Positions 7,777-50,196 of a stretch of 62,000 nucleotides of DNA are shown in pieces. The position numbers were made by a program, and so were the translations under genes. Origin of the DNA: Chiloscyllium plagiosum (lineage: Eukaryota); contig NC_057759.1 of the NCBI RefSeq assembly GCF_004010195.1, positions 1,743,069 to 1,805,068 on the forward strand, read 5' to 3'. The notes below the pieces were generated by a model. The model had not been told where the DNA came from and made no database searches. It saw only the letters and a program-made list of their open reading frames with translations. Each line of letters begins with the position of its first letter. Within the stretch, counting starts at the first letter, position 1.

Positions 7777-8253
7777 GTGACACAGTTAGATTAAATCTGA
7801 TTCTACACAAGAAATACCAAGAGTGGAAAGCTGCAATCAATTCAGGTTTATGGTGACTCCAAATTCTCACACCTATAAACCCTTTGAAATATTGTCGTTA
7901 CATTTTTTTCAGTGGTACGATTGTATTGTAATATTACCCTGTCACAAACTGTGAAGCATTTATGATACCCAACATGGTACATTTTTGTGAATAAGCCATA
8001 TTTTTCACTCAAGGGTAACATTATATTGTGTTATGTGTTGTATTATGATAAGGAATTGTATGGTTAAAGTATTTTATGTTCCTTCTATATTGTCATATGT
8101 TGTACATTTGGTTTGAGAATTGTTGCTGCTAGGATTTCTCTCTGGACTTTGCAATTGTTTTCTTCTGCACCTTTCTCCTTTCAAGTATTTTGCTTTTTAA
8201 AAGGGATATGTAAATATTGTTGTAAATGTCTTTATTTTAAAACCTTGTGACAG

Positions 8254-8583
8254 ATCAATTGTCGATACCAACAATCAAAATGCTGTCAGATTCTTGTGCC
8301 AGTCTAAATAGAAATAATGTCGTGATTTCATGGAAAGGTGACATTTGGCCCAGAGGAGGAATATTCTTCTTGTACAACAGTTGGAGAAAAGGTTCGCGAC
8401 AGGATCGTCAGGTGACTGGTCATAAAGATACTGCAGTCTTTACTATAAATGTCCATGAGCAGTATTCTGCAGGAGACTACAGTTGTTGGTATCATACAAA
8501 TGTTAATGGACATGCCGTACTTTCCCCATCCAGCCAATCTGTTCAAGTCACAGAGAAAAGAAAGGAGGATTACACATCAAAAG
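8254..8583 (+). CDS. Ig C2-type domain exon of an LILR/GPVI/FCAR-like receptor (B-strand Cys replaced by Trp; possibly a pseudogene)
   Basis: gtgacag|...|gtaatt, phase 1-1, open frame DQLSIPTIKMLSD...NVVISWKG...FFLY...AVFTINVHEQYSAGDYSCWYH...SPSSQSVQVT; GDYSCxY F-strand motif. Confidence 0.75.
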
Positions 8584-9144
8584 GTAATTACATGTTCATG
8601 TATCTCAAAATCGCCCTTCTTTTCATAGGTGCATGCAGGCAGTGGAAACTGCTAGTTTTTTTTTATCCAATGTAACATTTACAAGAAAAAACTGCTCAGC
8701 GATTCATGGTACTTGAGGTTTAAGATGGTCACGTGCTCTCGTTTTTACTTGTTGAAATTGAATCAAAGATCTGAGCTTGGGTTATATGCCCCTTCTCCTA
8801 GCAGTCGTCTACCTGTCTGAACTGGTGGACTTCATTTTGATGTACAAACAATGCCAAATAATGCTGCCATTGTTCACTAGGATGTAACGCCTGGGTTTTG
8901 ACAGAGAGCTGCGTAAGCATTTTCAAAAAATGACCATTCGATCATTGGTGTCGCAATTTGAAACAAAGGTTCAAGAGTTTCTTTTGTGTTGGACAAAAAA
9001 AATGCAAATTTGTGAATTTATCAGAGTCGGTGGAACCTCTACATGATTATCCAACAGAGGGGCAGAAATAATTTTCAAAAACAAATCATGAACTAATCAG
9101 GAAATGCCTTCATCATGTGAGTAGAGATTGTGAAATTGAATGTT

Positions 9145-22975: not shown

Positions 22976-23877
22976 TTATGTAATGATCTGAAGAACTGAA
23001 GTAAATGAAAAACTAAACATTCTTTTCAAGTGCTTTCTGAACTTGGTCTGTGTCACTGCATAAATAAAAGTGTTTGTGCAGCAGCTCAGGAGCTGCAGCA
23101 TTGAACCCAACACCAGAACAAAGCTGGGTAGATAAATCTTCACAAGACCAAAATAGTATAATCTGTACAACATGGAATAGGCCATAAATGTTGACCATAA
23201 AAGGATGAAATTTGCAGAGAGTGCAAACATTAAAATAATAGATTTCCTTCGACTTGCCATCTCTGGATCTTTAAAACTTACACCACTGCTCTGGGCCCGG
23301 AGTCTTCTCCGTGCTCGGCTTGTTCTGATAATGTGTCTGACAGTGAAAATATTCAGCAGCAGAATCAGGATGAAAGGAATACAGGGTGTTCCAATGTGAT
23401 GAAGAAGCTCAATCAACATCCATAAATGTGAGTTCAAATTGGTGACTGATATAACACAAAATGCAACGATGTTCGACAAAGTATATTGATCTCCTAACAT
23501 AAAATACCAGAAAATGTTCTTTAGGCAACTCACAGCAATCACTATTCCCAGCACCACAGCTGAGGTTTTCTCAGTGCAATATTTATGTTTCATCTTCTGA
23601 CAACAAATTGCCACAAATCGATCAAAAGTAAAAGCCACAGTGAACCAGACAGAACAATCAATGGCTGCATAATTCAGGACTGCATGAATATTGCACACAC
23701 GAATTAAATATCTTAGATAAAAGATTTCTTCAAAGAAAGGTCGTGGAATATGTCTCAGTATTACATCCAGGATAATAACCAAAAGGTCTGCCACTGCCAT
23801 GGCCACCAAGTATCGAGAAACACATTTGGAGAGACCACATTTTCCCAGAGATAGGATCCCAATCGCTATGACATTAA
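22976..23877 (-). CDS. Class A orphan GPCR, GPR139/GPR142-like (chondrichthyan-expanded type), coding exon 2
   Basis: Acceptor cacacag| at 23878; open frame VNVIAIGILSLGKCGLSKCVSRYLVAMAVADLL...FTFDRFVAICC...LLSCCTNTFIYAVTQTKFR to TAA; covers the end of TM1 through TM7. Confidence 0.93.
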
Positions 23878-24423
23878 CTGTGTGCAGGGGATATTATCAA
23901 GGAAATTAGTCTGCAAGCAAAATCATCATATAATAGTTGTACATATACAGGTTAGTTAATGTGTTGCTGCATTCAACTGATTTTAACTGACACAATGTAT
24001 CACATTATTGATCTTGAGACATGGCTGGTCATTCATTTGAAGTCATACTTAAACGAAATTAAATATCAGTGATGAAATGCCGTGTATTAGCTTGGATAAG
24101 CGCCCATCTCCGTTAGTTGGTTGGGCTTCCAGAGATGAATCTCGTCATCCAAATAATGTTGTATACTGACATCAAAGCAAGACTGGATTAAGATAGAACA
24201 AAGGTGACATGACGCAACGCATCCTTAAGTGGTATATTCTGTTCTGTTCCTCTTGCAGAGTGGTGTTGCCACAATGGTGGCAAAATGTCTCCATCAGACA
24301 GTCAGTTGATAAACAGCTTTGGATACCCGTGATTTTTTTTTTGACGTAAGACAGAAGTATCATGCTTGCATGTGGTCAGACCAGCACATGCCAAAAAGCA
24401 ATTTCGGCTATGCTTTCAGTTAG

Positions 24424-25052
24424 GAGGCGAAAGTGAGGACTGCAGATGCTGTAGATCAGAGCTGAAAATGTGTTGCTGGAAAAGTGCAGCAGGTCGGGCA
24501 GCATCCAAGGAACAGGAGAATCGACGTTTCGGGCATAAGCCCTACTTCAGGAATGAGGAAAGTGTGTCCAGCAGGCTAAGATAAAAGGTAGGGAGGAGGG
24601 ACTTGGGGGAGGGGCGTTGGAAATGCGATAGGTGGAGGGAGGTCAAGGTGAGGGTGATAGGCCAGAGTGGGGTGGGGACGGAGAGGTCAGGAAGAAGATT
24701 GAAGGGGAGTCCAAGGACTGCATCTCCTTGGTGGAGTGGGAGGGGTGTTGGGTTGGTTGGTCCGGATGTCCCAGAGGTGTTCTCTGAAACGTTCCGCAAG
24801 TAGGCGGCCTGTCTCGCCAATATAGAGGAGGCCACATCGGGTGCAGCGGATGCAATAGATGATGTGTGTGGAGGTGCAGGTGAATTTGTGGGGGATATGG
24901 AAGGATCCCTTGGGCCCCTGGAGGGAAGTAAGGGGGGGCGGTGTGGGCGCAAGTTTTGCATTTCTTGCGGTTGCAGGGGAAGGTGCCGGGAGTGGAGGTT
25001 GGGTTGATGGGGGGTGTGGACCTGACCAGAGAGTCACGGAGGGAGTGGTCTT
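24424..25052 (-). mobile_element. 5'-truncated Penelope-like element (GIY-YIG end + pseudo-LTR) in the GPCR intron
   Basis: FTCTSTHIIYCIRCTRCGLLYIGETGRLLAERFREH; 13-bp TSD tgctttcagttag at 24411-24423 and 25053-25065. Confidence 0.93.
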
Positions 25053-28270: not shown

Positions 28271-28749
28271 AGAGAGAGATGTGTTTATGGGCAACGGGGC
28301 ACTGGCATCGTGCATCATGTGTTTATGGGCAACGGTGCACTGGCAGAGGAAGTAAGTGCACGCATGCTGCAATCACAACTCTTTTGGTCTGCCCCGGGGT
28401 AAAAAGAGCACAGAAGTGATTAGAGATTGGCAGCGAGTGCGAGAGCAAGTAAAAATGCTTTTAGTTAAAGAGCAGCAACAGAGGAAGTTGGCAGGGTGGA
28501 CAGGGAAATGAAAGTGAAGGACAACAGGCCTAAGTGGTGGTAAAGAAGGCAAGCTGACAACAGTGAATCATGTTTAACAGATCTATGAAGCAGTTACAAG
28601 AAAAATGTTAAATAACCTGTATTCACGTGTACACAGTGTAGACAATTGCCCCAAGAACAGGCGCATCAACAAGGATGGCACCATAAATGGCAAGGTGAGT
28701 TAATATGTTGAGCATTACTTACAAAACACATTATGAGGCACAGACTTAC

Positions 28750-28972
28750 CAGGGACACCAACAATGCCAAGCATGGGATAGTAAATATAGGCAAAAATCC
28801 GAAGTGTGGCCTCGATTCGATCTGTTGACTTGATCCAATCATTGCCACTGTTAAGAAGGTAAAGCCAGCCAGAGAAACCCCTTCCCATCACTGTATTATT
28901 CAAATCATTTTCCTTCTGATTGTCACTAACTGCAATGATATTCTGCTCCATTGTTCTCGATAATCTCTCCAT
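28750..28972 (-). CDS. GPR139/142-like GPCR, coding exon 1
   Basis: MERLSRTMEQN...IFAYIYYPMLGIVGVP-G|gtaagt is a perfect phase-1 donor that joins exon 2 in frame (374 aa; 392 aa if the ATG at 29026 is used); TATTAAA on - at ~29053-29059. Confidence 0.85.
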
Positions 28973-30279
28973 ATCTGTGGCTGTGCTGATTACAGGTTTC
29001 TGCAAGGACATTGCACCTACTGTCATTCTGTGACAAGCAATTGAATGGAATCCTTTAATAAGTAGTCAAAGCTGCCCACATCTCCCCAAAAGGCACAATT
29101 AATTTCAATTAGTCATACATTAATTCCAGTTAATGAACAAACAATTGCAGTTAACCTCTTTAAATCAAATAAGCTTTGCACCACAATATATTAGAATGTT
29201 GACATGTTTCACTGAGAGTCTTACAGCGACAAAGTATGGAGAAAATAATTCAATAAACTATGAAGTTTATTTGCATAATTATACAGACGTACTTGCATAG
29301 GATTAAAGAGTTGCACATTTTGTCTGTGTAACAAAAAATGAAGGCCAGATTTAACTCTGCAGAGATGAGCCACCTGACATCAATGATGATGAACATTAGA
29401 AAGAATATAACCATCCTGGATAAATAATTGCAAAATCATATTTTATTTATGCGATATTCTTCGAAATCTTGAATATAATCCATCACTACTGAGCCAACCC
29501 TTTATCAATGATATCTGTGCCGCTGCCCCTCGTCCATTTCATCGCCATTATCTATACCAGAACCAATCATTATCGAAGTTGTCACTCTTGAGCACCATCT
29601 TTCGCAACTACGCCAATTGTCTTCCATCACCACCTCTCTGTCATCTGAACCAGACCCACCTACAATGGAGAGGCATCTCTCACCATTACACCCACCTCAT
29701 CAATGTTGCCACAGTGTCCAAAGGTGATTCCCTTTGTCAGATTCATTAGGACGAAAGATTAAAGTTTCAGAATTTGTTATCATTCATTTAAAACAGAGAT
29801 GTGACGATTACATTATCTCAATGAGCTGTTAATCTGCGGAATTCTTCACGTTAGAGGCTGATAAAGCTTGTTCATTAACTGTGTTCAAGAAACGTACAGA
29901 TTGCTTTTTGATCAATCAGGAATTCAAGCTTCAAGACGAATATGTAGTGAAGTGGAATTGAATATCAGTAGATAAGCCATGATACCATTTAATTATGGAG
30001 CAGACTTTTTGGATTGATGCTCCTCCTTTTGCTCACATGCCTTATGGCCTTCACGAACTTAAGTTGTGCTGCCCAAAGCCTGCTGTTTAGAGTATTCTCA
30101 GTTGTGTCTGAGTGGTGTAGAAGAGCTAATGATTTCTGAGGAACAAATTGAGCAGGAACTCAAAGTGAAAGAGCCCAGAACAAGGTTAAAAATGAGACAA
30201 TGAGACAATGGGAGTGAAGAACTTACGATACAGGTATGGAAAGATCAAATGTTGCATCAAGCAGTCTTTGTTGAACACA

Positions 30280-31139: not shown

Positions 31140-33590
31140 GTGCATAGAACGTTACAGCGCAGTAGAGTACCTTCGACCCTCGACTTTGTGCCAACCTCTG
31201 AAACCAATCTGAAGTGCAACTAACCTACTTTATTCCATTTCCGTCCTATTTTATTCCAATCCGTTGTCCAATGACCATGTAAATACCCTTAAAGTCGGCG
31301 AGTCTGCTATTGTTGCAGGCAGGGCATTCCACGCACCTACTACCCTCACAGTAAAGTAACTGTCGCTGACCACTCTCCTATATCTAAAACCCCTCAATTG
31401 AAATCTATGCCCCCTCATGCTAGCCAAACACAACTGCGGAAGCAGGCTTCCAATTTCCACCTCATCCTCTGATTATCTTATATGTTTCTATTAAATCACC
31501 ACTCAACCTTCGTCTCTCCTCAAAAACAGCCTCCAGTCCCTCAGCCTTTCCTCATAAGGCTTTCCTTCCATAGCAGGCAACATCCTAGAAAATCTCCTCT
31601 GAACCCTTCCCAAGCTTCCACATCGTTCTTATAATGTGGTGACCAGAACTGTACACAATACTCCAAGTGCGGCCAGATAAGAGTATTGTACAGTTGTCGC
31701 ATGGCCTCATGGTTCTGAAACACAATCCCTCTGCTAATAAAGGTTAACACACCACATGCCTTCTTAACAATCGTATCAATCTGGGTGGCAATTTTCACGG
31801 ATCTCTGTACACTAAGACCTCTCTATTCATTTACACTAACAAGAATCTACCCATTAGCCCAGTATTCTGCATTCCTGATGCTCCTTACAAGGTGAAACAC
31901 TTCACAACTTTTCTGTTTTAAACTGTATCTGCCATCTCTCAGCCCAGCTCTGCAGCTTATCTATGTTCCTCTATAACCTAAAACATCCTTCTGAACTGTG
32001 CACAACTTACCGACGTTTATGTTATGCGGAAATTTACGAACGCATCCTTTTCTGCCAAAAGCCAAGTTGTTTATACAAATGACAAACAGCAGTGGGCCCA
32101 AAACAGATCCTTGTGGTATACCACTAGCAACTGAACTCCAGGATGAACATTTTCCCATCAACCACCATCTTCAGTCTTATTACAGCTAACCAATTTCTCA
32201 TCGAAACCGCTAAGATTCCCACAATCCCATGCCTCCATATTTTCTGCAATAACCTCCTGTGGGCAACCTTACCAAACGCCTTTCTGAAATCCATGTACAC
32301 CACATCAACCGCTTTATCCTCATCCACTTGTTTGGTCACCTTCTCAAAGAACTCAATAAAGTTTGTGAGGCACGACTTATCCTTCACACAACTGCATTGA
32401 TTATCCCGAATCAACCAATTCCTTTCTAGATGATCCTTAATTGTATATTTTCGAATATTTTCTAAAACTTTACCCACAACTGAAGTAAGGCTCACTGCTC
32501 TATAATTGGCAGGGTTGTCTCTACTCCCCTTCTTCAACAAAGGAACAACATTTGCTATCCTCCAGTCTCGTGGCACTATTCCTATAGACAATGACGAAAA
32601 CAAGATCAAAGCCAAAGACTCGGCAACCTCATCCCTGGCTTCCCATGGAATCCTAAATTAAATCCCATCCGGCTCAATGGACTTATTTCCTTTTACACTT
32701 TCCAGAAATGCTAACACCTCCTGTTGTGAACCTCAATCCCATCTGGTCTACTAGCCTGTATCTCAATATTCTCATTGACAACATTCTCTTTTTCTAGTGT
32801 GAATACCGACGAAAAATATTTATTTAACGCTTCCCCTATCTGCTCTGACTCGATGAACAACTTCCCACGACTGTCCTTGATTGGTCCTAATCTTACTTTA
32901 TTCATTATTTTATTCCTAATATACTTAGAGAAAGCCTTAGTGTTTTCCATGATCCTGTCCGCCAACGAATCCGCATATGCCTTCCTGGCTCTTCTTAACT
33001 CTCTCTTTCAGCCTTTCCGAGCTAACCGGTGAATCTGAAGCTCCCGAATTTAGCCTTCACATCTTATCCTAACGTAAACTGGCTTCCTTCTCTCGACAAG
33101 TGATTCAACATCTTTCGTAAACCACGGCTCCTGCACTAAAAAAACTTCCTCCCTGCCTGTCAGGTACACAATTATCAAAGACCCGCAGTAGCTGTTCCTT
33201 GAATAAGCTCCACGTTTCAATTGGAACAGTCCCTTGAAGTTTCCTTCCCCATCCTATGCATCTAAAATCTTGCCTAATCTCATCGTAATTTCCTTTCCCT
33301 CAGCTATAACTCTTGCCTGTAGTATATACCTATCCCTTCCCTAAACCCATGTAAACACAACCGAATTGTGGTCGCTATAATCGAAGTGCTCACCTACCTC
33401 CAAATTTAACCCTGGCCGTGTTCATTACCCAATACTTATCCTATCGTGGTCTCGTCCCTTGTTGGCCTGTCTACATACTGTATGAGGAAACCCTCATGCA
33501 TACATTGCTCAAAAACTGACTGATCTAAAGTGCTTTACCTATAGTATTCCAAGTAAATATTTGGAAAGCTTAAGACCCCCACTAGTTCCT
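31140..33590 (-). mobile_element. CR1 LINE (endonuclease end, RT, 3' end)
   Basis: PRDWRIANVVPLLKKG, VDVVYMDFRKAF, SGIPQGSVLGPLLF and HLEYCVQFWSPH motifs. Confidence 0.95.
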
Positions 33591-33675
33591 CTTTCAGCTC
33601 ACTCTGCTGGGCACTGTCATAATGATACAAAACAAAAAAGAAAGAAAATCTCAATTACACGTGCATAAAAGCTTT

Positions 33676-33917
33676 GATTAGATTAGATTAGATTACAGTG
33701 TGGAAACAGGCCCTTCGGCCCAACAAGTCCACACCGACCCGCCGAAGCGAAACCCACCCATACCCCTACATTACCGGAGCACCCGGAGGAAACCCACGCA
33801 GACACGGGGAGAACGTGCAAACTCCACACAGTCAGTCGCCTGAGTCGGGAATTGAACCTGGGTCTCTAGCGCTGTGAGGCAGCAGTGCTAACCACTGTGC
33901 CCACCGTGCCGCCCACA
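33676..33917 (-). mobile_element. Young HE1-type V-SINE, present only in the left arm
   Basis: (gatta)n tail and tRNA head; the equivalent site in the right arm (~48035-48045) is empty. Confidence 0.9.
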
Positions 33918-34149
33918 AATTTTTATCACTTTTATCTGTCTTTGTCGAACACAGTGAATATCACACACGCACAGTTTGACCTTCAGACTGAGAACTAGGC
34001 ACAGCAGAAAGTGTAGGAGTCTGTCTCTGTGAATTTCTCCTGCGCGACTCACAATGACTGTCACACCTTCAGGCTCACAAATCCCCCATTCCCTCCAACC
34101 TCCGGAGCCCTTGCCAGTTAAATAGCATACTCCACCTGGAATGTTTCTC

Positions 34150-35100
34150 CCAGATCCTTAAATGTGTCCTCAGCCCAATCATCTTCAGTGCCTCATCAAT
34201 GACCTTCCATCCTTTATAGGGTCAGAAATGGGGATGTTCGGTAATATTTGCAAAATGTTCAGTAGTATTCTGACCTCCTGAGATACTGAAGCAGTTCATG
34301 TGAAAATACAACAGGATCTGCACAATATCCAGGCTTGGGCAGAGAAGCACCAAGTACCATTCACAACCGACAAATACTAGACTATGACAATGACCAATAG
34401 GTGCTGCGAGCACCACTCCAAACTTCCCGGTCCCACCCGACATTCAACGACGTTAACATCACTGAATCTCTACCATCAACATCCCAGGGGTTGCCATTAA
34501 CTTGAAACTGAATTTGACTCACGACATAAAAACAATGACCTCAAAAACAGGCCAGAGGCTAAAATACTGCGGTGGTTAATGAACATCTTGATCCCCAAAG
34601 CCTGTCCACAATCTACAAGGCACAAGTCAGAGGTGTGAGGGAATAGTCCCCACTTGATTGGATTGGTGCAGCTGCAACAACACTCAAGCAGCTTGACACC
34701 ATTCAGGCCATTAGATTAGCACAATATCGACAAACATACGCTCCCTTCAGCACTGATGCGCAGTAGCAGTATGTAGTAATTACGGGATGCACTGTAGAAA
34801 TTCACCAACGATCATCAGACAGGACCTTTCAATTTCACGACGACTTCTATCGAGAAGGGAATGGGCAAAAGATATCTGGGAACACCACCTCCTGAAAGTT
34901 CCCCTCCAAGCGTCTCACCAAATATGTCATCGTTCCTTCACTGTCACTTTGTTAAAATCCTGGAATTCCTTCACGAATTATATTGTGGTCCATCCACAGC
35001 AAGTAAATTGCAACTGTTCAAGAAGACAGATGATTGCCACCACCTCAAGGGAAACATTTTGGCCACACAGCCGTACTCACATCCGACAAAAGTGAATTAT
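34150..35100 (+). mobile_element. Old LINE (L2/CR1-like) 3' fragment; mirror copy at ~46830-47830 (-)
   Basis: Decayed RT C-terminus (tccacaatctacaaggcacaagtcag); related sequence at 39430-40300. Confidence 0.6.
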
Positions 35101-35910
35101 AAAAAAGAACTTGTGAGATGTCAGCATTAGGAATTAATTAGCGATAAAGTGAGAGAGAAAGAGCAATTGAAGATAGAGAAAAAACAATAACGTTTGGAGG
35201 GAAACTGGGTCATGTGACTGCAGAGAGAGACACAGGGAGATAGTGTGAGCATTAATGCCACTGTTTTCTTAATACAATCCTTGGACATGGTTCAGTAGAT
35301 GTGATCTGGAGAATGGTACATTCCTTCCACATCATCAGGATTCTTGTTTCTTCCATTCATGCCTGAACACTTGTAACAACCAAACATTTTAACAGTCAGG
35401 TTTCGAGAATGAATCAGAGCACACGAATGGAAAATCCTTCAGGGGTGAATGTTTGGTGGAGGAAACAACACAGGGAGGAGAACAGAGGCAGGGGAGGGGG
35501 AGACACAATGACATTCCACAGATCAGCTTCTCTGAAATTGGAATGTGCTGCCTGTTATCCCCCTGTTTATACTTCTGAGAGATGGTAGACGGACATGAAG
35601 TGCTGTCTGCAGACTGTGACTCGAGAAAGCTTGCTAGTTTGAAATCGATTGGGGTGACAGCATATCTGCTATTTCTGATCGTTGTCCTCTGATAACGAAG
35701 TGGTACATATTGTTTGCAATCTGAAAACAGATTTAATGAGACGGGATGTGAGCAATGTAGTGAAAAGCTTTATTCTCAATTCAAAAGCAATCAGTTAGGG
35801 CTCATTGGGATACACGAAACCAAGACGGGCCCAGAGTACGGAAACTGTAATTAGCTTCAGAAATGGCCTGAGGTGTTCCTTACCGTGGTGCGCATTTATT
35901 CCTTCACAAT

Positions 35911-37049
35911 TCATTGCGTGTAACGTATGCAACAATAGAAAAGAAGTAAGCAGCTCTCAGCCAACACCACTTCACCAGCATTACATCCTCCAATTCGGCA
36001 CACTGAACCGGATCTGAAAATGTGTTGCTGGAAAAGCGCAGCAGGTCAGGCAGCATCCAATGAACAGGAGAATCAACGTTTCGGGCATAAGTCCTTCTTC
36101 AGGCTTATGCCCGAAACGTCGATTCCCCTGCTCCTTGGATGCTGCCTGACCTGCTGCGCTTTTCCAGCAACACATTTTCAGCTCTGATCTCCAGCATCTG
36201 CAGTCCTCACTTTCTCCACACTGAACCGGATGTTTCGCAGCCGAAAGCTATAACTGGAAAACAAAGACAAACAGATCATTGATGTCCACACTTTGATGCT
36301 GCAACTTTCACCTAACCTCATGAGATTTATCCAAAAACTATATATACATATGCGTCCACTGTGATCAAGGATTGGCCATTTGTGGCTATCAGTTGACGTG
36401 GCATAATTTTAAAGGACTATCTTTAAAATAAACTAGCTTTTTTTAATTGCATAGGCAGGAAAAGCAGGGTTTGCTTAGTTGTGGGTAATGTTTACAATTG
36501 TTCGTCAAATGCTTAGTGACTGGATGGTGGGAATATCACTTGACTCGCCATCCAGGATCACCAAGCTCAGTTTCTGAAGAGCCACTAGTAATTCACACCG
36601 TGGCAGATGATGCAATTTGAATCATATTCAAATAGTCTAATGAAGGGAAGGAATACCTGCTTCACTAATTCCTTAGCAGATGGATTTCTGCCACGGGTAC
36701 CTAATCTGATCTGCATGTGACTCTCGTCTCAAAATAATGTGGTTCACATCTCAATGCCCTCTGGGATGACAAGAAAAGTTGTCTTTGCTCGTGACGCCTG
36801 TGTCCCATAAACGATTGTTGTACATATCAATTGATAAGTTTCGACACTTGCCAGCCTAAAACTAATAGAATGTAAGTCGGTCTTCAGGGGGAAAAATGAC
36901 CACAATCTGCCCTTCTGAAAATTTGTGAAGGCTGTTTGAGGAGAGATGAACTCACTTTGAAATGCAACAGTCGGTGTTTCTTCTTTATCGGCAGTGCCTT
37001 GTTGCACCATCACCAATAGCCCAAGAACTAAGAACAGGACGGTTCTCAT
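35911..37049 (-). pseudogene. Beta-defensin-like paralog disrupted by an insertion in exon 2
   Basis: Exon 1 37049-36956 (MRTVLFLVLGLLVMVQQGTADKEETPTVAFQ, |gtgagt). Exon 2 starts at 36253; the 203-bp insert gives ...GCETSGSVWRK*. The remainder CRIGGCNAGEVVLAESCLLLFYCCIRYTQ* ends at 35911. Confidence 0.88.
36014..36216. mobile_element. PLE pseudo-LTR-derived hairpin insertion
   Basis: 15-bp TSD cacactgaaccggat (35999-36013, 36217-36231); ~77-bp inverted arms ctgaaaatgtg...gggcataag / cttatgccc...cattttcag; CUGAAGA..GAAAC-GUU hammerhead-like core on - at ~36071-36103. Confidence 0.92.
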
Positions 37050-37789
37050 CCTCCATTGATTTCCTGTCGCACTAGTAGCTGCCTGGAGGATAAAGCTCCT
37101 TATACGATATCACAGACTGTACTGCGGTTAATAATTGCAAAAACAATAACATGGACATAATCAATTTCTCTTATGAGTCAATCAGTAACACACCGAGGCA
37201 CATGCAGACACAGTGTCACACATACTCCCATAACACACACTCAAACACACTGATATGGAAACACATACCGGCACCCACACAGATAGACACACACTGACAT
37301 ACACGCACAGACATGCAATGGCACACAACTTCACGCGCAAAGTCACACATGCACAGGAACACATGCACAATAACACAGGAATGTCACTCCACGTGATTTC
37401 TTATGATGTATATCTTTGATATTCAGCTCCCAATTCTAATCCCCTTGCAGCCACGTCTCAGTGATGACCGCCAGCTCATACCTGCTCATTCTGATCTGCA
37501 TCACAAGCTCGTTGACGTTATTCCTTAAACCGCGTACATTCACATACAAGACCTTTAGTTGATTACACAACCCTCTTCTCGTTGTCATTCTTTTGTCCAG
37601 CGTGCAAAGGTTTTGATTTCTAAACCTTTCAAGATACTCTGTCCTAATTGTGTCAGTGTTTAAATTTTAATAACCCCCACCATCGCCCCCACCCCCGATA
37701 TCTTTCCTCCTTTGTGATTCGGGTGTTCTAACTTTCCCCATAACTGAACACCCCCCCCCCCGCCACACACACACTTCCTAATTTACTTT

Positions 37790-44104: not shown

Positions 44105-44420
44105 ATTGTGTGAATTGGTGTGCATATGGCTGTGTGACTGTGTGTGTGTGGTTGTCGACGTGCGGACTTGTGTGTCTATGAGACCCGTGTGTTACTATGT
44201 GTGAGAGAGGGAGTGTGTATGTCTGTGTTTGGTAACTGTGCGTGTGTGTGTGTCTGTGTCTGTATGTACGTGTGAATGTGTGTGTGTGTGGGTCTGTGTC
44301 TCTGTGTACGTGTGTATGTGCATGAATGGCTGTGTTATTGTGCATGTGTTACTGTGCATGTGTAACTTTGGCGTGGTGTGTGCCATTGCATGTCTGTGTG
44401 TAAATGTCAGTGTGTTTTGA
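44105..44420. repeat. Degenerate (TG)n-rich tract
   Basis: Directly visible; the inner boundary of the inverted duplication (44330) lies inside it. Confidence 0.9.
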
Positions 44421-44561
44421 AAAATGTGGGTGCCGGTATGTGTTTCCAAATCAATGTGTTTGAGTGTGTGTTATCTGAGTATGTGTGACACTGTGTCTGC
44501 ATGAGTCTGGGTGTGTTACTGATTGTCTCATAAGAGAAATTGATTATGTCCATGTTATTGT

Positions 44562-44646
44562 TTTTGCAATTATTAACCTCAGTACAGTCTGTGATATCGT
44601 ATAAGGAGCTTTCATCCTCCAGGCAGCTACTAGTGCGACAGGAAAT
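44562..44646 (+). promoter_or_regulatory. Proximal promoter of the defensin-like gene
   Basis: TTTTGCAAT (C/EBP-like) at 44562, AACCTCA (RUNX-like; AACCGCA in the paralog) at 44575, TATAAG at 44600, CAGGAAAT (ETS-like) at 44639; retained in both arms. Confidence 0.45.
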
Positions 44647-44655
44647 CAATGGAGG

Positions 44656-44749
44656 ATGAGAACTGTCCTGTTCTTAGTTCTTGGGCTGTTGGTGATGGTG
44701 CAACCAGGCACTGCCGATAAAGAAGAAACACCGACTGTTGCATTTCAAA
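44656..44749 (+). CDS. Beta-defensin-like precursor, exon 1 (signal peptide + acidic propiece)
   Basis: ATG in aggATGa context; MRTVLFLVLGLLVMVQPGTA-DKEETPTVAFQ; perfect phase-1 donor |gtgagt at 44750. Confidence 0.88.
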
Positions 44750-45491
44750 GTGAGTTCATCTCTCCTCAAACAGCCTTCACAAATTTTCAGAAGGGCAGAT
44801 TGTGGTCATTCTTCCCCTGAAGACCGACTTACATTCTATTAGTTTTAGGCTGGCAAGTGCCGAAACTTATCAATTGATATGTACAATAATCGTTTATGGG
44901 ACACAGGCGTCACTAGCAAAGACAACTTTTCTTGTCATCCCAGAGGGCATTGAGATGTAAACCACATTATTTTGAGCCGAGAGTCACATGTAAATCAAAT
45001 TAGGTAACCACAGCAGAAATCCATCCGCTAAGGAATTAGTGAAGCAGGTATTCCTTCCCTTCATTAGACTATTTGAATATGATTCAAATTGCATCATCTG
45101 CCACGGTGTGAATTACTAGTGGCTCTTCAGAAACTGAGCTTGGTGGTCCTGGATGGCGAGTCAAGCGATATTCCCACCATCCAGTCACTAAGCATTTGAT
45201 GAACAATTGTAAACATTACCCACAACTAAGCAAACCCTGCTTTTCCCGCCTTTGCAATAACAAAAAACGCTAGCTCATTTTAAAGATAGTCCGTTAAGAT
45301 TATGCCACGTCAACTGATAGCCACAAATGGCCAATCCTTGATCACAGTGGACGCAGGTACTCACGTGAGAATGTATTGTTGTCATTTATATATATATATA
45401 TATATAGTTTTTGGATAAATGTCATGAGGTTAGGCGAAAGTTGCATCATCAAAGTGTGGACATCAATGATCTGCTTGTCTTTGTTTTCCAG

Positions 45492-45616
45492 TTATAGCTT
45501 TCGGCTGCGAAACATCCGGTTCAGTGTGCCGAATTGGAGGATGTAATGCTGGTGAGGAGGTGTTGGCTGAGAGCTGCTTACTTCTTTTTCATTGTTGCAT
45601 ACGTTACACGCAATGA
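45492..45616 (+). CDS. Beta-defensin-like precursor, exon 2 (mature six-cysteine peptide)
   Basis: Acceptor tctttgttttccag|; in frame with exon 1: IIAFGCETSGSVCRIGGCNAGEEVLAESCLLLFHCCIRYTQ*; C-x6-C-x4-C-x10-C-x5-CC; AATAAA at 45626 and 45750. Confidence 0.9.
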
Positions 45617-48129
45617 TTGTGAAAGAATAAATATGCACCGCGGCAAAGAACACCTCAGGCCATTTCTGAAGCTAATTAGTTTCCGTACTCTGGGTCCGTC
45701 CTGGTTTCGTGTATTCCCATGAGCCCTAACTGATTGCTTTTGAATTGTGAATAAAGCTTTTCACTACATTGCTCACATCCCGTCTTATTTAATCTGTTTT
45801 CAGATTGCAATCAATATGTACCACTTCGTTATCAGAGGACAACGGTCAGAAATAGCAGATATGCTGTCACCCCAATCGGTTTCCAACCATCAAGCTTCCC
45901 AGAGTCACAGTTTGCAGCCAGCACTTCATGTCCGTCTACCATCTCTCAGAAGTATAAACAGGGAGATAACAGGCAGCACCTTCCAAAAACCACGGTCACT
46001 TCCACCTGGAATGACAAAGGTACAGCTATATAAGAATTGAATAGAAATGAATTGAATTAGGTTTATTTTCACATTTACTCACGAGTTGAAAAGTTAAACA
46101 TTACATTTCTTCTTAATAAAATGTACAAAATCAAAGAGATTGGCACCAGTTTCTTGCAAAACCCCGCTCCAAGCTGCTCCCAATCCTGATTTGCAAGTAT
46201 ATTGACTGTTCCGTCACTGAAGCATGGTCAAGCTCCTGCAATTCCATCCCTGATTGTTTCTTGAGGATCCCTCTGCAAAACAGAGAAGGATTTTCCATCT
46301 TTTTAAGGACGTACGTAGGGATGGGCAACAATTGCTGGCCCACCCACGTCTTATGAAGGAAAAGCAACGAAGGCTTAGTGAAGACAGTGGAGCAGCGATT
46401 TCAGAGAAGCTGATCTGTGGAATGTCATTGTGTCTCCCCCTCCCCTGCCTCTGTTCTCCTCCCTGGGTTGTTTCCTCCACCAAACATTCACCCCTGAAAG
46501 ATTTTCCGTTCTTGTGCTCTGATTCACTCTCGAAACCTGACTGTTAAAATGTTTGGTTGTTACAAGTGTTCAGGCATGAATGGAAGAAACAAGAATCCTG
46601 ATGATGTGGAAGGAATGTACCATTCTCCAGCTTACATTTACAGAACTACGTCCAAGGATTGTATTAAGAAAACAGTGGCATTAATGCTCACACTATCTCC
46701 CTGTGTCTCTCTCTGCAGTCACATGACCCAGTTTCCCTCCAAATGTTATTGTTTTTTCTCTATCTTCACCGATTCTTTCCCTCTCACTTAATCGCTAATT
46801 AATTCCTAATGCTGACATCTCACAAGTTCTTTTTTATAATTCACTTTTGTCGGATGTGAGTACGGCTGTGTGGCCAAACTTTATCACGCATACCTGGTTG
46901 ACCTTGAGATGGTGGCAATCATCTGCCTTCTTGAACGGCTGCAATTTACTTGCTATGGATGAACAACAATGTCATTCGTGAAGAATTCCTGGATTTTAAC
47001 AAAGTGACAGTGAAGGAACGATGGCATATTTGGTGAGACGCTTGGAGGGGAACTTTCAGGAGGTGGTGTTCCCAGATATCTTTTGCCCATTCCCTTCTCG
47101 ATAGAAGTCGTCCTGAAATGGAAAGGTCCTGTCTGATGATCGTTTGTGAATTTCTGAAGTGCATCCCGTAATTACTACATACTGCTACTGCGCATCAGTG
47201 CTGAAGGGAGCGTATGTTTGTCGATATTGTGCTAATCTAATGTCCTGAATGGTGTCAAGCTGCTTGAGTATTTTTGTAGCTGCACCAATCCAATCAAATG
47301 GAGACTATTCCCTCACACTTCTGACTTGTTCCTTGTAGATTGTGGACAGGCTTTGGGGATCAAGATGTGCATTAATCGCCGCAGTATTTTAGCATCTGAA
47401 CTGTTATTATGGTCATTGCTTTTATGTCGTGAGTCAAATTCAGCTTCAAGTTAATGGCAACCCCTAGGATGTTGATGGTAGGGATTCAGTGAAGTTAACT
47501 TCGTTGAATGTCGGGTAGGACCGGGGAGGTTGGCGTGGTGCTGGCAGGTCGATTATTTCCTATTGGTCATTGTCATAGCCTAGTATTTGTCGGTTGTGAA
47601 TGGTACTTTGTACTTCTATGCCCAAGCCTGGATATTGTGCAGATCTTGTTGCATTTGCACATGATCTGCTTCAGTATCTGAGGAGGTATGAATACTGCTG
47701 AACATTTTGCAAATATCAGCGAATATCCCCACCTCTGACCCTATAATGGATGGAAGGTCATTAATGAGGCACGGAAGATGATCGGACTGAGGACACTATG
47801 AAAGATCTAGGAGAAATATTCCAGGTGGGGTATTCTATTAAACTGGCAAGGGCTCCAGAGGTTGGAAGAAATGGGGGGGTTGTGAGCCTGAAGGTGTGAC
47901 GGTCATTGTGAGTCGCGCAGGAGAAATTCACAGAGACAGACTCCTACACTTTCTGCTGTGCCGAGTTCTCAGTATGGAGGTCAAACTATGCGTGTGTGAT
48001 ATTCACTGTGTTCTACAAAGACCGATAAAAGTGATAAAAGCTTTTATGCACGCGTGATTGTGATTTTTTTCTTTTTTGTTTTGTATCATTATGACAGTGC
48101 CCAGCAGAGTGAGCTGAAAGAGGAACTAG

Positions 48130-50196
48130 TGGGGGTCTTAAGCTTTCCAAATATTTGCTGGGAATACTATAGATAAAGCACTTTAGATCAGTCAGTTTTT
48201 GTCCAATGTATGCATGAGGGTTTCCTCATACAGTATGTAGACAGGCCAACAAGGGACAAGACCACGATAGGAAAAGTATTGGGTAATGAACACGGCCAGG
48301 GTTAAATTTGGAGGTAGGTGAGCACTTTGGTTATAGCGACCATAATTCGGTTGTGTTTACATGGGTGATGGGTAGGGGTAGGTATATACTACAGGCAAGA
48401 GTTATAGCTGAGGGAAAGGAAATTATGATGCGATTAGGCAAGATTTTAGATGCATAGGATGGGGAAGGAAACTGCAAGGGACTGTTCCAATTGAAACGTG
48501 GAGCTTATTCAAGGAACAGCTACTGCGGGTCCTTGATAATTATGTACCTGACAGGCAGGGAGGAAGATTTTGAGCGCAGGTGCCGTGGTTTACAAGGCTG
48601 TTGAATCTCTTGTCAAGAGTAGGAAGGCAGTTTACGGTAGGATAAGATGTGAAGGCTCAATTAAGGAACTTCGAGGAGAAAGTGAGAACTGCAGATGCTT
48701 GGAGATCAGAGCTGAAAATGTGTTGCTGGAAAAGCGCAGCAGGTCAGGCAGCATCCAAGGAGCAGGAGAATCGACGTTTCGGGCATGATCCCTTCTTTGT
48801 CGATTCTCCTCCTCCTTGGATGCTGCCTGACCTGCTGCGCTTTTCCAGCAACACATTTTCAGCTCAATTAAGGAACTTCAAACTTACCAGTTAGCCAGGA
48901 AAGGCTGAAAGAGAGAGTTAAGAAGTGCCAGGAAGGCATGTGAGGATTCGTTGGCAGATAGGATCATAGAAAACACTAAGGCTTTCTCTAAGCGTATGAG
49001 GAATAAAATAATGAATAAAGTAAGTTTAGGGCCAATAAAGGACGGTCGTGGGAATTGTTCATCGAGTCAGAGCAGATAGGGGAAGCGCTAAATGAATTTT
49101 TTTCGTCGGGATTCACTCTAGAAAAAGAGAATGTTGTCGATGAGAATACTGAGATACAGGCTTGTAGACCAGATGGGATTGAGGTTCACAACAGGAGGTG
49201 TTAGCATTTCTGGAAAGTGTAAAAGGAAATAAGTCCATTGAGCCGGATGAGATATATCCTAGGATTCATTGGGAATCCAGGGAGAAGATTGCTGAGTCTT
49301 TGGCTTTGATCTTGTTTTCGTCATTGTCTATAGGAATAGTGCCACGAGACTGGAGGATAGCAAATGTTGTTCTTTTGTTGAAGAAGGGGAATAGACACAA
49401 CCCTGCCAATTATAGAGCGGTGAGCTTTACTTCAGTTGTGGGTAAAGTGTTCGAAAACATTCGAAAATATACAAATGAGAATCATCTAGAAAGGAATTGG
49501 TTGATTCGGGATAGTCAACAAAGTTGTGTGAAGGATAGGTCGTGCCCCACACACCTTATTGCCTTCTTTGAGAACGTGACCAAACAAGTGGATGAGGATA
49601 AAGCGGTTGATGTGGTGTACATGGATTTAAGTAAGGCGTTTGATAAGGTTCCCCACAGCAGGTTAATGCAGAAAATATGGAGGCATGGGATTGTGAGAAT
49701 TTTAGCTGTTTGGATCAGAAATTGGTTAGCTATAATAAAACTGAGGATGATGGTTGATGGAAAAATGTTCACCCTGGTGTTCAGTTGCTAGTGGTCTACC
49801 ACAAGGATCTGTTTTGGGCCCACTGCTGTTTGTCATTTGTATAAATAATATGGCTTATGGCAGAAAAAGATGCGTTCGTAAATTTCCGGATAACATTAAG
49901 GTCGGTAAGTTGTGCACAGTGCAGCAGGATGTTTTCAATTACACAGGAACATAGATAAGCTGCAGAGCTGGGCTGAGAGATGGCAGATACAGTTTAACAC
50001 AGAAAAGTGTGAAGTGATTCACCTTGGAAGGAGCAACAGGAATGCAGAGTACTGGGCTAATGGGTAGATTCTTGTTAGTGTAAATGAGTAGAGAGGTCTC
50101 GGTGTCCATGTACAGATATCCATGAAAGTTGCCACCCAGGTTGATACGATTGTTAAGAAGGCATATTATGTGTTAATTTTTATTAGCAGAGGGATT
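48130..50196 (+). mobile_element. CR1 LINE (duplicate of the 31724-33590 segment)
   Basis: PRDWRIANVV, VDVVYMDLSKAFDKVPH, GLPQGSVLGPLLF; shares private changes (IRKYT, HLERNWLIRD) with the left copy. Confidence 0.95.
48673..48861. mobile_element. PLE pseudo-LTR-derived hairpin insertion, right arm only
   Basis: 18-bp TSD gctcaattaaggaacttc (48655-48672, 48862-48879); same family as 36014-36216; empty site at ~33035-33055. Confidence 0.92.

Follow-up and report, generated by a model that had tools for sequence, protein, structure and literature searches.

The window analysed here, a stretch of 62,000 nt from the shark Chiloscyllium plagiosum (NC_057759.1, positions 1,743,069 to 1,805,068), contains a predicted two-exon gene for a small six-cysteine peptide, a broken inverted twin of that gene and a receptor gene. 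The features are listed below by their positions in the window.

22976-23893 and 28715-29065, reverse strand: G protein-coupled receptor (GPCR) gene in two exons, of the shark 'probable GPR139' expansion
31724-37378 and 44330..50196, no strand assigned: arms of an inverted duplication, 91-95% identical, the second holding the focal gene
35911..36253, reverse strand: twin exon 2, with a repeat insertion after 11 codons that adds a stop; pseudogene
36013..36216, no strand assigned: palindromic interspersed repeat of 204 nt, flanked by a target-site duplication of 14 nt (36230-36217 and 36012-35999)
36956..37049, reverse strand: twin exon 1, donor intact, 97% amino-acid identity to the focal exon
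44600..44605, forward strand: TATA-like box TATAAG, 56 nt 5' of the ATG
44656..44749, forward strand: focal exon 1, for a signal peptide and an acidic propiece of 11 aa; its length of 94 nt and GT donor are common to 16/16 family genes whose exon 1 was found
44750..45491, forward strand: phase-1 intron of 742 nt, from GTGAGT to a pyrimidine tract and CAG
45492..45616, forward strand: coding part of focal exon 2, for the 40-aa mature domain and the stop
45506..45598, forward strand: six-cysteine motif, predicted to form a three-stranded sheet
45626..45631, forward strand: proximal AATAAA
45750..45755, forward strand: distal AATAAA, a signal that the inverted twin shares

Joined in phase 1, the two focal exons give an open frame of 72 aa ending in TGA. 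This agrees with the original prediction, since the frame, the GT donor, the AG acceptor and the stop are all intact, and the TATA-like box and two AATAAA signals that it described are in place; a third AATAAA lies farther on at 46115. The signal peptide was judged by eye from hydrophobicity to be about 20 aa long and cut after Ala20. The second exon carries the pattern C-x6-C-x4-C-x10-C-x5-CC (gaps 6-4-10-5). There is a single instance of it across all six frames of the window; 100 locally shuffled windows had none. Of two single-cell RNA runs, sampled at roughly 2% and 6% of the reads, X5 gave four reads, all 3' of the exons, and X6 gave none, samples too thin to bear on expression. Run X7 yielded only repeat pieces. 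There is strong evidence from genomic comparison that the gene model is correct, because the splice positions are conserved across family peptides that, the closest paralog aside, share no more than 24-46% identity with it.

The prediction of a gene at this place was sound, but its description as a single gene was not. On the opposite strand of the same window, at a distance of 7 kb, there is an inverted twin disrupted by a repeat, and dozens of relatives exist genome-wide. Further copies of the palindromic repeat, or partial matches to it, are found elsewhere in the window (e.g. 48676-48865 and 24424-24551). As for the other genes, 119 of the 120 best homologues listed for the GPCR exon at 22976-23893 were named from sharks and one was without a name, which supports the cartilaginous fish of the original prediction. 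Part of an open frame at 8241-8675 on the forward strand resembles Ig domains (Pfam Ig_2, E 0.38), and this frame is possibly an exon or remnant of a gene for an Ig-superfamily receptor.

Searches of the 3.56-Gb genome gave 16 matches with the exon-2 protein, 34 with exon 1 and at least 68 with a DNA query for which 40 of 114 candidates were scored. Three further queries with single proteins gave 77, 59 and 14 matches at E<=10. When four queries were pooled, at least 72 distinct exon-2 positions remained at E<=0.01, distributed over contigs C46 (12), C49 (11), C50 (9) and C27, C43 and C45 (1 each); the other 37 fall on unplaced contigs, so that haplotype duplicates may be among them, and the family counts are to be read as lower bounds. 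We consider it very probable that a large family of such genes exists in this shark.

The family has a rigid framework. A loosely defined six-cysteine pattern picked out 42 stretches in loci L001-L159, 41 of them with exactly the gaps 6-4-10-5, although the invariance of the six cysteines is partly built in, since the scan required them and the queries had the same spacing. An acceptor AG stands 14 nt 5' of the codon for the first cysteine in 37 of the 42, all with 6-4-10-5, and these give 34 distinct peptides. Wherever the first exon of these genes was found (16/16) it measures 94 nt, even where the signal peptides differ; in another subfamily it measures 91 nt and the intron is still in phase 1. 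Glycine two residues before Cys2 and glutamate after Cys3 are typical of beta-defensins without strictly defining them. Each of the two, with the glutamate four residues after Cys3, is found in 31/34 distinct family peptides. The focal copy lacks this hallmark glycine, which has been lost here: of the two residues named in the original prediction the glutamate is kept, but the position two before Cys2 is occupied by serine, and the glycine of GSVC sits at -3.

Many copies are decaying. The 41 distinct exon-1 matches comprised 13 intact and 28 broken ones by criteria of our own, under which at least one copy (L097) was miscalled because its subfamily has the exon 1 of 91 nt. A TATA-like word, whose pattern was chosen after the data had been seen, stands at the same place in 11/13 intact and 6/28 broken exon-1 copies. 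The tree of the family peptides is weakly resolved (3/34 inner branches starred). The family evolves by birth and death. One clade consists of 13 broken copies (L041, L047, L049, L050, L051, L057, L060-L062 and L066-L069) on C16, C37, C45 and unplaced contigs, which have an exon-1 stop in common and have lost the donor and the TATA box; it is a dead gene that continued to be multiplied by segmental duplication. Another group (L167-L173, on the large chromosomes C7, C8, C11, C23, C32 and C38) is dispersed and near-identical with the 6-4-10-5 spacing. Its members are weak matches to a single-protein query, their first exon was not found, and the group may travel with GPCR clusters. On C46, two intact and nearly identical second exons, each with its own acceptor and stop, lie 383 nt apart (3859743 and 3860126; L123 and L161), and one of them is possibly an alternative terminal exon.

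The kinship of these peptides was assessed with profiles, a language model and predicted folds. The HMM comparison with beta-defensin families came out differently for the focal peptide and for its relatives. The focal peptide matched nothing in Pfam, and three of eight relatives matched, only to the beta-defensin families PF00711 (E 0.0042) and PF13841 (E 0.0019) and all below the curated cut-offs (17.5 of 21 bits and 19 of 22.2). A genome scan with PF00711 brought up five more members above the cut-off, full-length and identical in spacing, where partial, chance-like matches score alike, and a scan with PF13841 gave five matches with none above its cut-off. Searched against PDB sequences, a profile of 19 family sequences hit beta-defensins in 6/6 matches, weakly (best E 0.051); an alignment of 11 sequences (A1) gave chance matches only. 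The ten best family-bearing matches in the ESM Atlas all belong to the beta-defensin family or clan, the top one scoring 0.85 (180/256 features) and that for a paralog 0.87, scores that the Atlas notes themselves grade as a lead.

The predicted structure points, weakly, the same way. The AlphaFold (AF2) model of the focal domain (pLDDT 78) has strands at residues 10-14, 21-27 and 32-37, at positions that would be compatible with disulfides C1-C5, C2-C4 and C3-C6. Against 48,161 chains its best six matches were beta-defensins (Z 3.6-3.9, rmsd 1.6-3.9 over 32-38 residues), including hBD6 (Z 3.9, rmsd 2.4 over 37) and crocodile CpoBD13 (Z 3.8, rmsd 1.9 over 34). On the other side, scores were low overall, alpha-defensins and sea-anemone peptides came within 1 Z of the best beta-defensins, and Foldseek returned no significant match (best E 0.82, an alpha-defensin). 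Scores as weak as these are expected for 40 residues. Taken with the gene anatomy and the spacing, the profile, language-model and fold searches agree, each weakly, with the beta-defensin-like identity proposed originally, and these three computational lines point weakly but consistently to beta-defensins.

Neighbouring families of the same fold class (ovodefensins, alpha-defensins, the big-defensin C-domain, helianthamide and anemone beta-defensin-like peptides; Z 2.6-3.5) fit less well. Alpha-defensins are known only from mammals and start with CxC, which is not matched by the six residues between Cys1 and Cys2 of the focal peptide, and the N-terminal domain of big defensins is absent from its product. 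The ovodefensin spacings (OvoDA Cx5Cx3Cx11Cx3CC and OvoDB Cx3Cx3Cx11Cx4CC, as given in PMC9138766) also differ from 6-4-10-5. Spacing and gene anatomy fit beta-defensins, not alpha- or ovodefensins.

Tetrapod beta-defensins (PF00711, PF13841) likewise have a signal exon and a six-cysteine exon, and the three-stranded fold predicted here has been solved in human hBD-2 (1fd3), hBD-4 (5ki9) and hBD-6 (2lwl), chicken AvBD2 (2lg5), mallard AvBD3 (7lzl) and crocodile CpoBD13 (7t9q). One published motif is C-X6-C-X3-5-C-X8-10-C-X6-CC (PMC6716921); the focal gene has five residues before the CC, as do 42/66 Komodo dragon genes in the same source. The focal spacing falls inside the avian consensus Cx4-7Cx3-4Cx9-10Cx5-6CC (PMC9138766). 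A large birth-and-death repertoire with an anionic minority is also common to both (9/66 genes in the Komodo dragon, PMC6716921; 3/34 peptides in the shark). Unlike in tetrapods, the shark spacing is fixed in 41/42 matches, exon 1 encodes an acidic propiece of 11 aa, the loci are distributed over several contigs and not beside cathepsin B, and the focal peptide has serine for the conserved glycine and is without a Pfam score. Teleost beta-defensins resemble the shark peptides in their six cysteines, and the precursors of olive flounder have a similar size (67-77 aa with a proregion of 5-15 aa) and include a group, fBDI, with an anionic mature peptide (PMC8231796, PMC8116387). The flounder pro-regions are basic, whereas the focal propiece is acidic. 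Teleost genes are described as consisting of three exons and as being few, with three copies in zebrafish and seven in salmon (PMC8231796), while the shark genes have two coding exons, as in mammals, and dozens of copies.

These differences raise the possibility that the shark genes form a defensin-fold family of their own, which descended from an older trans-defensin or arose by convergence and is not orthologous to the beta-defensins of bony vertebrates. The linkage to cathepsin B and XKR6 that marks the tetrapod cluster does not hold for the shark family. The one cathepsin-B-like gene (PF08127) is on C9, and the 160 kb around it (10.8 kb N) have no match to the family profile above 3.6 bits; XK-related genes are on C3, C4, C12, C15, C20 and C27, with none on the main defensin contigs C45, C46, C49 and C50. 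The fixed spacing, the spread over at least six chromosome-scale contigs and the weak sequence scores point the same way, and an unrelated 418-aa repeat protein matches the same profile at E 7.5e-5, which indicates that the motif can arise elsewhere. Against this stand the signal exon, the phase-1 intron and the terminal six-cysteine exon, the glycine and glutamate in 31/34 peptides each, a spacing inside the avian consensus (PMC9138766) and the members that score above the PF00711 cut-off. We regard non-orthology as very unlikely and beta-defensin membership as the better reading.

Acidity was the most unusual property of the peptide in the original prediction, and as a property of this copy it is real. 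The focal exon-2 peptide has 4 Glu and 2 Arg (net charge -2, pI 4.9, GRAVY 0.57), and after the presumed cleavage at Ala20 the product has a net charge of -4. Among the 34 family peptides its pI is the lowest and its hydrophobicity the second-highest. As the mark of a divergent chondrichthyan lineage the acidity does not survive comparison, and an 'anionic lineage' was rejected. Net charges in the family range from -2 to +8, with 28/34 peptides positive, 3 neutral and 3 negative, and the acidic ones are scattered over the weakly resolved tree, next to sisters that are neutral or cationic. The closest intact paralog, L003, has a net charge of 0, with Gln and Val replacing two of the four focal Glu, and the twin has one of those two Glu. 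Moreover, anionic beta-defensins are known elsewhere, in the olive flounder group (PMC8231796, PMC8116387) and in the Komodo dragon (PMC6716921). The acidity is recent and copy-specific rather than a property of a lineage.

An acidic and hydrophobic peptide would be expected to be weak in electrostatic lysis, and for that reason the focal variant is probably a poor membrane-lytic peptide of this kind. It could instead be a receptor ligand or an enzyme inhibitor (a chemoattractant, a ligand of a GPR139-like receptor or an inhibitor like helianthamide) and not an antimicrobial. CCR6, CCR2 and melanocortin receptors are targets of certain beta-defensins, and among the structural neighbours of the model are helianthamide, which inhibits amylase, and hBD6, whose entry title mentions CCR2 interaction; the net charge of -2 and the extreme pI and hydrophobicity would also suit such a role. 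A ligand of a host receptor is, on the other hand, expected to be conserved, while the mature exon is hypervariable across the family and turns over fast, and a common fold shows no function. The GPCR gene 21 kb away was rejected as evidence for a ligand. Its adjacency means nothing because the GPR139-like family, one of orphan receptors, has 8211 first-look candidates genome-wide. The signalling role suggested at first is thus unsupported, and we think a ligand or inhibitor decidedly unlikely, in favour of a host-defence peptide.

The hypervariability of the mature exon was examined in six non-overlapping paralog pairs of our choice, compared at pN, pS and the intron. In three of the six, pN of exon 2 (0.34-0.41) exceeded the divergence of the intron (0.08-0.16; P<1e-6), and pN was significantly larger than pS in one (P 0.03). 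In L010 and L045 on C50, exon 1 and the intron are about 7-10% apart and exon 2 about 40%, at synonymous (0.42) and non-synonymous sites alike, which suggests that exons were swapped between these sequences or that their 5' part underwent gene conversion. Positive selection as the sole cause of the fast change of exon 2 is not supported, as pN exceeded pS significantly in 1/6 pairs only and synonymous sites of L010 and L045 are equally diverged.

For the focal copy itself, the comparison with L003 gave no signal of selection (pN 0.10, pS 0.12, intron 0.074). This similarity of pN, pS and intron divergence would be expected if the focal gene were a silent or decaying copy, an incipient pseudogene whose acidity and loss of glycine are drift. 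Its own subclade on the same contig is mostly broken: the twin has its insertion, Cys3 of L002 has become Tyr, L005 has a stop, L023 a frame break, L071 has lost the ATG, and L006 and L009 have lost cysteines. In a simple simulation of neutral evolution, the probability that the frame, the splice sites and the six cysteines survive the last 4% of divergence, since the split from L003, was 0.14-0.19, which is not small. The focal copy nevertheless retains the TATA-like box, the ATG, both splice sites, the six cysteines and two AATAAA, and the neutral survival of both it and L003 would have a probability of about 0.02-0.04 (the product of simulated values). In contigs from run X1, which are possibly not independent, exon 1 has no listed difference and most of exon 2 has one; only at 45589 do all covering contigs differ, and that change is synonymous. 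Over 14% of divergence, which is half of the intron distance of about 28% to the next clades, neutral survival fell to 0.002, and from this value of 0.2% we conclude that the focal lineage has been functional for most of its history. Present function of the focal copy is likely on the same sequence comparisons, and a silent copy seems to us unlikely.

We therefore favour, with moderate confidence, the reading that the focal gene is intact, belongs to a large unannotated family of shark beta-defensins and encodes a variant of a secreted three-disulfide host-defence peptide. A TATA promoter would drive a spliced mRNA, the signal peptide would be cut at about residue 20 and the short acidic propiece may be trimmed. 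The domain of 40 residues would then fold as a three-stranded sheet with C1-C5, C2-C4 and C3-C6 disulfides and be secreted at a surface of epithelia or of the reproductive system, where it would be one of the variants in a host-defence repertoire. The focal variant would more likely act by making hydrophobic contact with a target on the surface of a microbe or of the host.

Small split genes such as this one seem to be easily missed by annotation, as had been predicted, since no family member was found in protein databases that do include annotated shark proteins. Alignment A1 (11 sequences, lengths 17-84) gave nine candidates there with none at E<=1, and alignment A2 (19 sequences, lengths 80-2000) gave none. 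An HMM search of 1.84 billion representatives returned no family member and two matches, a low-complexity repeat protein and the unrelated 418-aa protein; the latter is unnamed, has a prokaryote-like look and combines a signal peptide with six-cysteine repeats, three in tandem. These blanks fit an annotation gap weakly, because the search depends on exact words. We found no published chondrichthyan beta-defensin in the open-access literature, and a prior report in subscription journals is possible. Section 14 of a 2019 review of cartilaginous-fish immunity names no shark defensin (PMC6795676), and PMC10707392, PMC13337447 and PMC9363672 add nothing further on chondrichthyan beta-defensins.

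A bolder proposal, which we offer tentatively and hold to be doubtful, is that sharks carry an undescribed and unannotated radiation of about 100 two-exon beta-defensin genes on several small chromosomes, off the cathepsin B block. If this were true, beta-defensins and their two-exon form would have been present in the ancestor of jawed vertebrates, and the few three-exon genes of teleosts would be derived. A large two-exon family in a shark bears on the ancestral exon state, for which teleosts with three exons and mammals with two have been compared (PMC8231796). It is our guess that the expansion serves the reproductive tract or the egg case of a fish with internal fertilisation, in parallel to the epididymal defensins of mammals and the ovodefensins of birds, and likewise a guess that the acidic, hydrophobic focal subclade is a non-lytic specialist. 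The interest of the focal copy lies chiefly in its place at the acidic, hydrophobic end of its family; comparison with its neutral sister and with cationic relatives lends itself readily to asking whether peptides that kill and peptides with other roles differ by charge. A hypervariable repertoire dozens of genes strong would close the gap in shark defensins, trace beta-defensins back to the gnathostome ancestor and provide many peptides adapted to salt and urea for tests.
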